From assembly GCA_964529685.1 (NCBI GenBank), contig CAZGZC010000004.1:15399-79398 (forward strand): a stretch of DNA of 64,000 nucleotides, written 5' to 3'. Numbering within the stretch: position 1 is the first letter of the stretch; each line of letters starts with the position of its first letter. Positions 46,807 to 58,800 of the stretch are shown here, in pieces. The position numbers were made by a program. This stretch comes from an uncultured Candidatus Midichloriaceae bacterium. GTDB lineage: Bacteria > Pseudomonadota > Alphaproteobacteria > Rickettsiales > Midichloriaceae.

Positions 46807-49800
46807 AGGTTCAACTCCTCCCAGACCCACCATCCACTCGCTTGTTTTCTTCATTTTTATATATTTTTACCATATCGTCAATTAATTCTATAGCTTCAGA
46901 TTTACTCCGTTGGAAAATGTTCCGACCAATGATTGAACCATCACCTCCACCGCTTTTAATCTCTCTTATTTCTTCTAATAAAGATTGTCTACCCTTTTTT
47001 GATCCTCCGGAAAATAAAACAATTCTACGACTATTAAATGTACATTTTTTTATATGTTTCACTCTTTCTGCTAGATTAATCATAGATGGATAATCTAATT
47101 TACTATTGGTAATGCTATTATTCGGTAACTTAACTTTGATTATGTGGGCACCTGTGAGAGCGCCTATATGAGCTCCATATGATATAGTATCTAATGAAGC
47201 CTCATCTTTAATTCCAGCACCTCTTGGGTATGACCATATGACAGAGACAAGTCCTAGGTTTTTAGCTTGTTGAAAGAGACGTTGTGCTTGCTCGAGCATC
47301 TCATCACAGTTGTTTGATCCTGGATATATTGTAAATCCAACACCGATACATCCTAGCTTAAGAGCATCTTCAACAGAAGCTGTAATTGCTTGGTGAGGTT
47401 GATTTTCTTTAGATTTTAAACTATTGTTACTGTTTAATTTGAGAATCATAGGAACTGCACCAGGTTTATAAGCAGCTGCAGCTTCTAACATCCCTAATGG
47501 AGCAGCATAAGCATTAACGCCAGAATCAATGGCTAGATCTAAATGATATAAAGGATCATAAGCTGCTGGATTTACAAGAAAGCTTGCATCTGGCCCATGC
47601 TCAAACCCCTGATCCACTGGTAGTATAATTATTTTACCAGTTCCAGCTAGTTTTCCATGATTTAAAATTCTATAAAGATTTGTCCGGATAGCTGGTATTT
47701 CATAAGTGTATTGAGAAAGTATGTCCATAGTTTTTTCTCATAATATATCATATATAATCTTAAGAAATTTGATTAAAAATGTACTATATGAGATCAAAAA
47801 ATTATCTTATAATATTTTTATATAATGCTACTATAGCTTGGACTGCAATACCTTCCTTTCTTCCAAGCGCTCCAAGCTTTTCAGTAGTAACTGCTTTGAT
47901 ATTAATATTATTAATATCCAAACTAAGGATGAAACTGATTTTTTTCCTGATATCGATTGCATAAGGCATAATTTTTGGTTCCTCACATACAACTATTAGA
48001 TCAATATTACAAATCTCGTAACCTTTGTCTATAATAAGATTATAAGCATGAGTAAGAAAAATTTCAGAATTAGCATTTTCCCATTGAGGTTCCGATGGTG
48101 GAAAATGAGTACCAATACTTCCAGCTGCGATAGTGCCAAGCATGGCATCAGTAAGAGCATGAAAAATTACATCTCCATCTGAGTGTGCTGTAATGCTTTT
48201 GCTATAAGGTATCTTGACTCCACCAAGGATTACATAATCTCCTTTTGTAAATGCATGCACATCATAACCAATTCCAACTCTAAACATTATTTAACTCCTT
48301 TTTTATAATTGCTAACAACTTTTCAATATCTGAATTAATCAGCTTACCTATAAGTGAATAGGTAATTTTATTATTCTTAGTGATAAATAGAGATGGTTTC
48401 TTTTCGATATTCATTCTTTTAAACTGATCTTCGTCTATAGCTATAGTACATATAGAGATATTAGCATCAGATACTGTTTTTATAGATTCTTCCTTATCTG
48501 CTTTTACCAACTGTGAGAGAAATTTTTTATTTATCTCTGATTTTTTAAGGATATTTATAACTTCTAGCTTAGTTGTTTCTCTCTGAACTATTCCTGCTAA
48601 TTGTGCTGGTAAGGTATTCCATATTTTCAAATCATCAATACAAGTTTTACAATTTGGAGATGTAATATGTAAGATCTGAATCATATTATTGTTAACCAAA
48701 ACAATCTTGCCGTTATTAAGACATTTGTAAGAATTTGTATCTGCAGGACTTATATTTTCAAATTCATTTTCAATAATTTTAACTGAGTCTATATACTGAC
48801 TAATATGTTTAAAATACACCGGTGATAAAAATAAAGCAATGATACAAAATACCGCTAACACTCTGAATGTTTTCTGAAACATTTGATTTTTTCATGTATA
48901 AACGTATGCACTTTTATCATATCAAATACAAACTGTAAATGAAAAATTTATATAGAAAAGATATATCACAAGAAGAAGCTGAAAAGGCTATAAAAACCAT
49001 TATAACTTGGATTGGCGAGGATTCTAATAGAGAAGGTTTGATAGATACACCAAAGAGAGTCCTTAAAAGCTATCTTGAGAAATTTGATGGATATAATATT
49101 GATCCGAAGGATATTCTCTCAACAAGCTTCTCTGAGACTAACAACTATAAAGGTGTAATTACACTTTCAAATATAGAAATTGAATCAACATGTGAACACC
49201 ATCTTGCACCAATTATAGGAAAAACTAGTGTTAGCTATATACCGCGCAATAAAGTTGTTGGTATAAGCAAGTTGGCGAGAGTCGTTGAAGTATTTTCTCA
49301 TAGACTACAGTTACAAGAAAGACTAACTTCTCAAATAGCTCATGTGATTAATGAGTGTTTATCACCTAAGGGAGTCGCTGTAATAATAAAAGCTAAACAC
49401 CATTGTATATGCTATAGAGGTGTATTACATAGGAAAACAATGATGGAAACATCTTGTTTTTTAGGAGAATTTGAACAGAAACCAGAAATTATTCCTAAAT
49501 TAAAGTAATTTAAGCTTTTTTTAATCTTGCTTCTAAGCATAACTTATATATTTTTCTCTCTATTACTAGAATTCCTTAATTGTATACTTAATCAATAGAA
49601 ATTTTAATAATATAGTTTATATATTTTTTTAAATATAGTGAATCAATTTTAAATTGTTTAAAATGTTAATAAGAAGTTATATTTCTATATTATTCCTAAT
49701 ATTTATTATCTGTGGTTGTACAACTGTTAGTAAAAAGACAATCAATTTATCAAACAAAAAGATTGAAGTTGTTGCACCTAGCAGCTCGCACAATATTGAG

Positions 49801-55800: not shown

Positions 55801-58800
55801 AAGTAGAGGGTGTATCAAAGCGAGAAATAACTTACACCTATTAAGTAATAGTAATGCTAGCTTGAATGAGGTGAAGATTGCTCAGGAAATGGCAAAACAG
55901 GCATGTAGTGAACAATGTGCGATTACATTTAATGCGAATGATTTACAGAATGCAATTAATTATACAGATGAAAAAATTGGAAAATTAATCCTAGCTAATA
56001 CAAGATTACAAGAATTTGTAAAAAAATATAAACCTACAGTTTATGCCGATACCTTGCTATTTAACTTAGGAATTAGAAAACAACTAGGTGTGAATAGAAA
56101 CACAGTAACAATTGATGATATATACAAAATTATGACATCAGTTTCAGGTATGCACTATGTGCAAATCAAATCTAAATATCCTGATCTGCCTGATATATGT
56201 GTAAATACTACTCAGCCTGCAATGTTGATTTTATATACTATAATGAAGAGCCTAAGTATAAATGAAATAGTTAGTATTCAAACTGATTACATGGAAGCTT
56301 TCTTAGAAGAAAATCTTTAGTCTTTATTGTGTCATAAAGTATTTTATGATACTTTCTCTTTAAATAGTTTAAAAAAATAAATGTCAAGTATATTTTTTAC
56401 TTGTGAGACTGGTAAGAGAGAAGCAAAGTTTCGTCCATCTCAACAAACAGATGCTCCAGCAGTTTTAGTACTACATCCGCATCCTTTACATGGCGGCACT
56501 ATGAATAATAAAGTTGTTTATAGACTTTTTGACACCTTTGCTGCAAATGGATTCTCTGCTATGAGATTTAATTTTAGGGGAGTTGGAAAATCTCATGGAG
56601 TTTTCGAGCATGGATTAGGGGAGTTGATAGATGCGACAACAGCTCTAGATTGGATGCAGAATACTTTACCTAATGTATCACAGTTTTGGATTGCAGGATT
56701 TTCATTTGGCGCATGGATTGGACTACAATTAGTAATGCGTAGACCAGAAGTGAAGGGTTTTATAATGGTTTCACCACCTGCAAATTCATATGATTTTTCA
56801 TTTTTAACACCGTGTCCAGTTGGTGGTTGTATAATACAAGGTCGAGAAGATAAAGTTGTACCAGAGCCAGCAGTTGAAAAGCTAGTCATGCAAATCTCAA
56901 ACCAGCCAAATATTAGAATTAATTACAATGTTGTTGAGGGAGCTGACCATTTCTTTCATAATAAACTTGATGATCTAACAGTGATTGTTGATAGGCATCT
57001 CAAAACTGAGATGACTGGGCAAAATCAACCAAAGAAAAAAGTTAAAAAGATTATTACGGACCTATTGCCAAGTGATGAGTAGCATTGTCTATTTAAAAGC
57101 CCTATCAATACTATTAGGAATAATTGCAAGTATGTTTTTAGTTGTATGGATATTTAAGAAAATCAGGTTACACGAGAGATTTATAATCAAAAGTAGCAAT
57201 AGAATTAAAATTCTAGAAGTTAAAAGAATAGATCATAATAAATCAGTTGTGATTATTGACATAGATGGGATTGAATCTATGTGTGTTTTGTCCGAACATT
57301 ATGGATGGATACTTGATGGTGGAGAGAGTAGGATTCGAACCTACGAACGCGCAAGGCGGGCAGATTTACAGTCTGCTGCTTTTGGCCACTCAGCAATCTC
57401 TCCTGAAATATCTAAAAAGAAGTATTGCACAAGTAATAAGAAAAATCAATAGTATAATCTTATTATTTGACATTTTCACTATAAAATAGTATAGATCAAT
57501 ATTCAATTATAAAGTAGTAAGTCATATGATTTCAGAAAATAAATATCCAGTGTATTGCTATGTCCCTCAAATATGTACTTCTAATATCGAAAGTATAACC
57601 TATGGTGAAAAAACATTTAAGATTGGAGATAAATTTTCGAAAACAGGATATCATGAAATTGCTGTTGGAGATCTTACATCTCAAGAGATATTTAGTACAA
57701 AACTTACGGTAAATTTTTTTGAAAAGCTATTGTATTCATATCCAAACAACAAATGCTGTACTCATAAATAATCTAAGACAATCAATTCCTTGTAAACAAC
57801 AAAAAATCCTAATTGCAAACAATGAAAATGCTTATCAAATTGCTTTTAAGATAAATGAAGAATGGCAATATCATGAACAATCAAGGGTTGAAACACAACA
57901 AGATGAGAACTCATCTAAAAGCACTATAACATATCAAATTCCTACTGAAGAATTCACAATTGAGATTAAGCCTATATTTAAAAAAATCAAACAGGATGAG
58001 GTGAAAAAAGCAGTTAAGCCAGAGAACAATGTTCCTAAAGTTCCTAAAATTAAAAAGGATGTTAAACCACCGAAAAAAGTTAAAATTCCAGAGAAAAAAG
58101 TTAAAGCTGAAAAGATAATTCCAGAGCAGGTTAAAGAAGAGAAGGGAGTTAATCCACAGACAAAAGCTGAAGTTAAAGAGGAAGAAGATTGGCAGGCATA
58201 TTTAAATTGTTTCAGTGCATCAAGCAAAGAAAATGAAATCGAGCATATTATTAATGGTTTACAATGTATGCTAGAGTATTTGCCGATCCTGATATAAGTA
58301 TAATGATTAACATTTGTTAGCTCTGCAAGATATACAAAATAGTACAATTTATAACATAGTATCGTACACTAAAGACTGTATAAAAAATCAACTGAATTTT
58401 ATTCAACATCAATAGAGAAGCTTTCTCAAGCTTTGTTTAATTTACTATTTTGATAATCATTATAAAGTATATCTTGTAGAAAACCTTGATGAAAAACTAA
58501 ATGAAATTAGTAAATATTAACCAATGCTTGAGCTTAAATGATGAAAATTTTAGCGATAATCAATACAACATAGATTATCTTGCTCAGAAGCTGCATGAAG
58601 ATATCAGTCTTGAGGAGAAATTATCTATCGCTAATAAATGTGTTAGTCTATGTGAGAAATTCCATAGTTACTTCCATTTTGAGGGATCATATTTCCATCT
58701 ACTTTTAGCAAAAAATCTTGACAGTAAAGAGTTATATATCAAAGAGTTAGAAGCTGCTATCTTTCAAGATCCACTTAACTATGAGGCAAAGAAGCTTTTA

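Follow-up and report, generated by a model that had tools for sequence, protein, structure and literature searches.

What does a bacterium of the order Rickettsiales keep an inactive copy of the type IV secretion system (T4SS) protein VirB4 for, and does that copy have a partner? Degenerate duplicates of T4SS components (RvhB4-II, RvhB8-II and RvhB9-II) have been a hallmark of Rickettsiales secretion since 2009, and rvhB4-II has been treated as a lone gene: its product (VirB4b) is a solitary VirB4 paralogue of the Rickettsiales rvh T4SS with a defective nucleoside triphosphate (NTP) site (Gillespie et al. 2009, PMC2653234; 2015, PMC4676284), "the rvhB4-II locus is well separated", and rvh-II is described as being of unknown significance (PMC4676284). 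A locus within a 64,000-nt stretch of DNA from an uncultured Candidatus Midichloriaceae bacterium (CAZGZC010000004.1, positions 15,399–79,398; hereafter the window, on which all coordinates are based) bears on both questions. It carries, on one strand, an LD-carboxypeptidase gene (ldcA), a VirB4-like gene with a destroyed ATPase site, and a gene for a large exported protein rich in cysteine (Cys). What is new is the conserved pairing of an RvhB4-II-type paralogue with an exported, orphan-fold protein family; the dead VirB4 itself was already known. An earlier note on this DNA knew of no described system of this composition. For the VirB4 copy that does not hold, as it is the described RvhB4-II; for its pairing with an exported Cys-rich family it does, a targeted search of the T4SS and rvh literature having turned up no description.

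The VirB4 paralogue and its conserved neighbour

The VirB4-like gene (50595..52820, + strand, GTG start) keeps the N-terminal VirB4 domain (PF03135, 30.8 bits against a cut-off of 21), and its C-terminal ATPase half is strongly diverged. TIGR00929 matches residues 5–455 only (E = 1.8e-49; 168.7 bits against a cut-off of 643.1), and the alignment to TrwK likewise spans residues 8–457. Where TrwK has the Walker A sequence GQSSSGKT, the window protein reads GSKDNGAD, losing both the Lys and the Thr of the consensus GxxxxGK[ST]. With its C-terminal half unmatched by TIGR00929 and no intact Walker A, the protein is not a canonical VirB4 ATPase, and the earlier description of it as ATPase-dead is borne out. 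The same note had seen no other T4SS gene in the window; we too found no other T4SS domain in a Pfam scan of window open reading frames (ORFs), mostly of at least 120 aa, which left ORFs of virB2 or virB3 size unscanned. Because the N-terminal VirB4 domain is present, the Walker A motif is lost, no other T4SS gene was found in 64 kb and the published description has the same features, the gene matches the RvhB4-II type, a predicted ATPase-defective paralogue of the rvh T4SS; the match is to published descriptions and not to reference sequences.

Comparative loci were drawn from a VirB4 alignment scan of one genome per species, which gave 80 loci, and from contig look-ups for further contexts; the Walker A survey covered 85 VirB4 ORFs. 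The nearest relatives are metagenome-assembled genomes (MAGs) labelled Rickettsiales or "Ca. Fokinia", which makes a Midichloriaceae-like bacterium probable. A crude neighbour-joining tree sets this VirB4 clade apart from all other VirB4 groups, and a family hidden Markov model (HMM) places a member of the Cys-rich family directly after VirB4 in 9/9 loci of the clade. Seven of these (the window, L001, L004, L005, L006, L084 and L085) have the order ldcA, dead VirB4, Cys-rich gene, with Walker A lost in all six relatives as it is in the window; in the other two, L087 and L008, the Walker A motif is intact and ldcA is missing. The trio is thus kept in relatives, a point on which the earlier proposal had depended, and it is kept between differing flanks. 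Upstream lies folE in the window, an ABC permease gene in L001, mutS in L004, L005 and L006, ndk in L084, ileS in L085, an unrelated 345-aa ORF in L087 and a gene for an LpoA/LppC-like lipoprotein in L008. Downstream, the window, L001 and L006 have genes for a Ppx-like protein, a hydrolase and a FliO-like protein, a block that is inverted in L005; L084 has only the Ppx-like gene, then secE-nusG; ligA follows in L085, an atpI-like gene in L087 and an unrelated membrane protein gene in L008, and the L004 contig ends inside the Cys-rich gene.

The VirB4/Cys-rich pair persists down to 27–31% protein identity, with differing flanks. Its two genes are separated by 1, 9, 10, 10, -4, 4, 17 and -1 nt in the eight loci other than L008, where they overlap by 4 nt; where ldcA is present, in seven loci, it lies 5, 5, 6, 7, 5, -4 and 65 nt from VirB4. 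Since L087 and L008, with intact Walker A and without ldcA, branch deepest in the crude tree, the pairing, judged from sequence, arose before the ATPase site was lost. A further contig, P0007, carries mutS, a 717-aa ORF without a Pfam match, a Cys-rich member, and Ppx-like and hydrolase genes; ldcA is apparently absent, and the 717-aa ORF is probably VirB4.

Another large Rickettsiales group has a solitary VirB4 that follows gltA, with nothing comparable downstream. In freshwater Rickettsiales MAGs (L015, L021, L024, L025, L029, L043, L053; L034, L039) the solitary copy always stands after gltA, and most of these copies have an intact Walker A and a few do not (L015, L021, L024, L025, L029, L043 and L053 versus L034 and L039). 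Because the gltA-linked copies are mostly intact and a few have lost the motif, the ATPase site of solitary VirB4 paralogues may have been lost several times.

Read directly, the junction between ldcA and the VirB4-like gene is TAG-cgcaa-GTG, a 5-nt gap, and that between the VirB4-like and Cys-rich genes is TAG-t-ATG, a 1-nt gap; the ORF positions and gaps first reported for the trio are therefore correct. The conclusion once drawn from them, that such packing implies co-transcription, fares less well as evidence. Gaps of 10 nt or less separate 13/45 same-strand neighbour pairs of the window, functionally unrelated pairs included (hemB with a histidine-kinase-like gene; folKP with a TENA-like gene), and two consecutive tight junctions are therefore not far from chance expectation for this genome. 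The VirB4-like and Cys-rich genes are presumably co-transcribed. As the only sizeable gap upstream of the trio, the spacer between folE and ldcA (49509..49662, + strand; 145–154 nt, AT-rich, read directly) is likely to be its promoter region. A promoter scan around the trio, this spacer included, gave matches at background level only, and no terminator-like site was found throughout 48800..58000; both scans are uninformative in DNA as AT-rich as this.

The cysteine-rich family

The gene that follows VirB4 (52822..55077, + strand) encodes a 751-aa protein of an uncharacterised family, with 28 Cys, predicted Sec export and a beta-rich model. Its predicted type-I signal peptide is conserved in homologues, in agreement with its first description as a large exported Cys-rich protein. 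Among 7 aligned family members 26 Cys columns are invariant, and the motifs PPPFTPG, CDLCINA, PDKIC, WDFISGRY, CTFLPGC and CIGGIYG are invariant or nearly so; the member in L087 has 838 aa and that in L008 1299 aa with 52 Cys. The family is rare: a word-indexed search of 5.8 billion proteins returned 7 relatives and a full HMMER profile search of 1.84 billion representatives returned 33. Among 30 clusters looked up, the only named organisms were Ca. Fokinia solitaria and Ca. F. crypta (Midichloriaceae), with the entry "hypothetical protein", and the few remaining names were a bare "hypothetical protein". A metagenome scan with the family alignment found one 3.7-kb contig, without upstream context, and none of the Rickettsiaceae-like MAG loci examined contained a member.

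Searches of Pfam, NCBIfam and PDB sequences gave no match to the protein, the Pfam scan of the 7 members extending to E = 10. An AlphaFold (AF2) model built on a 22-sequence alignment reached a mean predicted local distance difference test score (pLDDT) of 84.5 and a predicted template modelling score (pTM) of 0.68; it is predicted to be mostly beta, in three confident segments separated by a PPPF linker and a variable loop. (An earlier run with 7 sequences had given a pLDDT of 51, and its Foldseek search was uninformative.) Foldseek with the better model gave no credible match, either in the PDB (best E = 8e-3, probability 0.13, template modelling (TM) score <0.1) or in BFVD. The earlier note had asked whether the protein belongs to a known family and had proposed a Foldseek search; Pfam, NCBIfam, PDB sequence and Foldseek searches all came back empty, and the predicted model has no structural analogue in either structure database. 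This is a previously uncharacterised family with no detectable fold analogue.

A comparable arrangement occurs in four far more distant loci (L041, L060, L038 and L009), in which a VirB4 gene is followed not by virB6 but directly by a large ORF with 20–40 Cys. These ORFs have at most 2 predicted hydrophobic segments, mostly N-terminal only, and no Pfam match. Searched with an extended family HMM, they are the four best non-family matches among 3546 ORFs (E = 2e-5, 3e-5, 3e-4 and 0.47; all remaining matches E >1), and a GC[V]xxPxxPxPPP-type motif occurs in 12/3546 ORFs, all 12 of them family members or directly after VirB4. The islet in L060 has the order virB2-virB2-virB4-X, X being the Cys-rich ORF, and the canonical islets L010 and L059 have virB2-virB2-virB4-virB6. 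Since X stands directly after virB4, where L010 and L059 have virB6, the exported Cys-rich protein occupies the virB5 place of the archetypal virB operon; the resemblance is one of position only.

The family also has a member of 1847 aa in the ~0.84-Mb genome of the endosymbiont Ca. Fokinia solitaria (L086; CP025989.1). Directly upstream of it, at 5281..7899, lies a gene for an 872-aa homologue of "megatron", a gene transfer agent (GTA) baseplate protein (NCBIfam E = 3.7e-163, below the cut-off).

Genes flanking the pair

Six + strand genes lie between 49.6 and 57.5 kb in the window. The first, ldcA (49663..50589, + strand; ATG start, with an upstream TTG at 49654 possible), encodes a peptidase S66 protein and predicted lipoprotein in which both S66 domains exceed Pfam cut-offs (PF02016, 54.6 bits; PF17676, 90.4 bits), and the NCBIfam equivalog model scores 84.5 bits, far under its cut-off of 378. 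In alignment to the solved LdcA structures 6uuk and 5z01, GYCDIT stands for GHSDFT, which places Cys at the position of the nucleophile Ser; the catalytic Glu (LEDCHE) and His (FGHG) are retained, and the triad is thus Cys-His-Glu in place of the classical Ser-His-Glu. A Cys-variant LdcA had been reported here before, and the alignment confirms it. A nucleophile Ser occurs in 111 of the 120 closest homologues and a Cys in the other 9; Glu is invariant and His present in 119/120. The 9 Cys forms all belong to the nearest relatives, in which neighbouring matches switch back and forth between Ser and Cys. Cys is chemically competent as a nucleophile, and, judged from the sequences, swapping one competent residue for the other looks neutral or nearly neutral and does not suggest inactivation. 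We therefore rejected an inactive or special enzyme, and an adaptation to this locus, on the grounds that Ser and Cys toggle in close relatives with His and Glu fixed. A series of such swaps runs through the S66 homologues P0029–P0048, for example P0031 (Ser) versus P0032 (Cys) and P0040 (Cys) versus P0041 (Ser).

The N-terminus of this LdcA, MLIRSYISILFLIFIICG up to the Cys, ends in a lipobox-like IICG-C. Because its closest homologues carry canonical L-x-G-C-type lipoboxes (LSGC, LGGC, IAGC, LVGC) and the more distant Rickettsia homologues likewise begin with signal-peptide-like sequences, an exported LdcA is normal for Rickettsiales, and we predict an ordinary exported peptidoglycan LD-carboxypeptidase that is a lipoprotein in this clade. 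In R. typhi the LdcA gene adjoins a lytic transglycosylase gene and not rvhB4-II; a general linkage of LdcA with rvhB4-II across Rickettsiales was rejected, the two being unlinked both there and in the gltA-linked clade.

Downstream of the trio, beyond a gap of 103 nt, the first gene (55181..56320, + strand) encodes a Ppx/GppA-like ASKHA protein with 10 Cys and a type-I signal peptide, atypical for Ppx, that is conserved in L001, L005, L006 and L084. PF02541 scores 37.1 bits (cut-off 27), covering only residues 107–199, or profile positions 57–151 of 285; TIGR03706 scores 31 bits against a cut-off of 307; the ASKHA motifs DVGSS and DIGGGS are visible in the translation. With these motifs, a partial domain match and a conserved signal peptide, the product noticed earlier behind the Cys-rich gene is a putative exported ASKHA phosphatase. 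An alpha/beta hydrolase gene follows (56381..57082, + strand), its product without a signal peptide and hence predicted to be cytoplasmic, and highly conserved (70–86% identity to L001, L005 and L006). It is overlapped by 11 nt by a gene, absent from the earlier note, for a FliO-like 126-aa single-pass membrane protein (57072..57452, + strand; TIGR03500 E = 4.8e-7, below the curated cut-off), which is kept after the hydrolase gene in L001, L005 and L006.

The earlier note had joined the trio and the Ppx-like and hydrolase genes in one module. The downstream block does not fit it: since the block is inverted in L005 and lost in L085 and L087 (and reduced to the Ppx-like gene in L084), a five-gene operon-like module was rejected, and the Ppx-like, hydrolase and FliO-like genes make up, on comparative gene order, a unit of their own beside the trio. 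The window has flagellar genes at scattered positions: 1889..2635, 12571..13998 (- strand) and the FliO-like 57072..57452, namely a FlgE/F/G-class rod or hook gene, a flagellin gene and the weak FliO-like match; the relatives L002 and L084 additionally carry fliI, fliF and fliG.

The window is AT-rich throughout (GC 28–38%) and otherwise holds housekeeping genes: icd, hemB, trmD, fabI, mnmE, folKP, hemF, rpoA, lon, mutS, clpXP, lipB, ispF, folE, bioB and a gene for a PBP2-type transpeptidase. Horizontal acquisition of the region was considered and rejected, its GC of 28–31% being close to the window range and its relatives all of Rickettsiales type. Amid the housekeeping genes, just upstream of the ribosomal-protein/rpoA region, lies an ORF with an Ntox46 bacterial toxin domain (22935..23750, + strand; Pfam E = 2.4e-8), and tandem sodium:solute symporter paralogues of 473 and 471 aa, 12 nt apart, occupy 43857..46706 (+ strand). 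At 58501..59362 (+ strand) the C-terminal ~30 residues of a 225-aa ORF (…NRSKIFYSMDCDILAKNDLIKAQNLD…) recur in the overlapping next ORF of 64 aa (…NRNKIFYSINCDILAKNNLIKMR), as if part of the sequence had been duplicated in tandem; L001 has a homologue of the 225-aa ORF at the equivalent relative position. A gene for a MavL-like macrodomain (ADP-ribosylhydrolase) effector (60508..62227, - strand) is broken into two ORFs, 61793..62227 matching Pfam MavL profile positions 1–116 and 60508..61776 matching positions 112–319, which indicates either a frameshift or internal stop, or else an error in sequencing. In the longer ORF a segment of ~29 aa is duplicated (APSTEKKDKLEENLLQFT...), and L001 also has a MavL gene near the corresponding cluster.

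Possible roles of the pair and comparison with known systems

We consider, with moderate confidence, that the Cys-rich protein serves the rvh T4SS as an extracytoplasmic accessory, in the periplasm or exposed at the surface, and would be made together with the VirB4 paralogue. Several points weigh against this. Four family members stand away from VirB4: that of L002, after rsmE; Fsol_00208 of Fokinia solitaria (L086), after the GTA "megatron" homologue and with rvhB9 and rvhB10 ~4–8 kb off; and those of L090 and L091. Tight spacing is common in this genome, between unrelated genes too, and mutS and ldcA overlap by 11 nt in L004–L006. RvhB4-II orthology is drawn from descriptions and not from reference Rickettsia sequences, and the neighbour-joining tree is crude. 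The view of this genome is the 64 kb of the window, from which a canonical RvhB4-I is not visible. Finally, direct contact between the two proteins is not expected, because VirB4 is cytoplasmic and the Cys-rich protein exported.

The dispersed family members and the equally tight packing of unrelated genes would also be expected if the synteny were simply inherited without functional coupling and the Cys-rich protein served the envelope or cell surface in a general way, for instance as an adhesin or as a structural protein of the periplasm. That mutS, ldcA and the Ppx-like and hydrolase genes accompany the pair in several relatives suggests just such plain synteny blocks, and we regard this explanation as possible, if rather unlikely; what counts against it is that the pair persists where all its surroundings have changed (L084, L085, L087 and L008), is retained at the low protein identities given above, and has counterparts in the similar Cys-rich ORFs after solitary VirB4 in far more distant lineages. 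A further explanation is a cell-wall function. On that explanation the trio would be a peptidoglycan-remodelling unit with a vestigial T4SS link, the dead VirB4 and the Cys-rich protein having been co-opted for the cell wall or division together with LdcA. An LdcA lipoprotein does lie upstream in most loci, an LpoA/LppC-like lipoprotein does so in L008, and PBP2 genes are found nearby in L084 and elsewhere in the window. However, the two deepest loci, L087 and L008, have no LdcA gene and P0007 apparently has none either, R. typhi LdcA is unlinked to rvhB4-II, and the Pfam scan found no peptidoglycan-binding or hydrolase domain in the Cys-rich protein, so that we give this explanation very little credence.

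The Cys-rich protein could instead be cargo, exported by Sec and folded with disulfides in the periplasm before the rvh T4SS releases it through the outer membrane. A precedent is set by Ptl, which releases pertussis toxin that is Sec-exported and folded in the periplasm; a signal peptide and conserved Cys fit such a folding step, and the gene adjoins a T4SS gene. But a gene that overlaps a structural gene at start and stop more typically encodes a partner in a complex, for an effector the family is highly conserved across deep lineages, 26 Cys columns and several motifs being invariant, and no toxin or enzyme domain was found by Pfam or PDB sequence searches, which together make a cargo improbable. 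A bolder form of the accessory reading would make the family the missing extracytoplasmic partner of the Rvh-II set, a stand-in for VirB5 that acts as a surface or pilus-tip adhesin and is assembled with the help of a specialised, non-hydrolysing VirB4 paralogue. We offer this as speculation that is doubtful as it stands. If true, it would explain why Rickettsiales keep a dead VirB4, and the virB2-virB2-virB4-X islet of L060 and the Walker-A-intact pairs of L087 and L008 would show this module at earlier points in its evolution.

On the reading that we favour, the locus is the rvhB4-II islet of a Rickettsiales bacterium. The N-terminal domain of canonical VirB4 provides a link to the inner-membrane complex; by analogy, the retained domain could anchor the paralogue there, and without its Walker A lysine the protein could not bind or hydrolyse ATP through that residue. 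The start of the Cys-rich gene 1 nt after the VirB4 stop (with overlaps of 1 or 4 nt in three relatives) would be consistent with translational coupling, and its product, Sec-exported, disulfide-rich and beta-rich, would then be made together with the VirB4 paralogue. We infer that it is physically associated with the T4SS, and the biochemical roles outlined here are all inferred in the same way. LdcA would act in the periplasm as a lipoprotein; as an S66 LD-carboxypeptidase, it can be expected to shorten the tetrapeptide stems of peptidoglycan to tripeptides. It would have joined the VirB4/Cys-rich pair in one subclade and may remodel the wall locally; it could equally be a housekeeping passenger. 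That it opens the wall for the secretion machine, as the earlier note proposed, is possible, with nothing in the analysis pointing to it specifically.

A conserved, possibly translationally coupled partner would be the first concrete lead on the role of the inactive VirB4 copy, and the order of events, pairing first and loss of the ATPase site later, bears on how the VirB4 paralogue evolved. The reach of the finding is that of a rare family known only from uncultured, mostly environmental or protist-associated lineages.

Set beside known systems, each component has a recognisable counterpart from which it departs. Like LdcA of E. coli and P. aeruginosa (PA5198), the window enzyme has both S66 domains, the Glu and His of the triad and a nucleophile elbow G-x-[SC]-D-x-T; it differs in having Cys for Ser at the nucleophile and in its lipoprotein signal, the E. 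coli enzyme being cytoplasmic. LdcA of Neisseria gonorrhoeae is periplasmic. For the Cys-rich protein one comparison is with TraN of F-type T4SSs, a Cys-rich, beta-rich outer-membrane protein of mating-pair stabilisation with ~22 conserved Cys. The two share large size, Sec export, many conserved Cys and a beta-rich make-up, and the window protein is a candidate for the T4SS association that TraN has; against this, the window protein has no match to Pfam TraN, no PDB sequence match and no PDB fold match (probability at most 0.13), and no F-type tra genes surround it. The other comparison is with VirB5/TraC, the minor pilin and pilus-tip protein of P-type T4SSs, which it resembles in its gene slot directly after virB4 and in its signal peptide. 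A VirB5 protein is ~220 aa long and folds as a three-helix bundle that carries a globular appendage; the rvh system is reported to have "no VirB5 analog", and Ptl, like rvh, is without VirB5 (PMC2653234). The window protein, by contrast, has 751 aa, is beta-rich and contains 28 Cys, with no Pfam match to E = 10 and no Foldseek match.

The closest likeness is that of the VirB4 paralogue to RvhB4-II of Rickettsiales: a second VirB4 of approximately normal size in a Rickettsiales-type genome, which keeps the N-terminal domain, has its NTP residues destroyed and stands apart from other vir genes. Rickettsia RvhB4-II has been described without vir neighbours or a partner, whereas here, and throughout this clade, a conserved exported protein is encoded directly after it and ldcA usually lies before.

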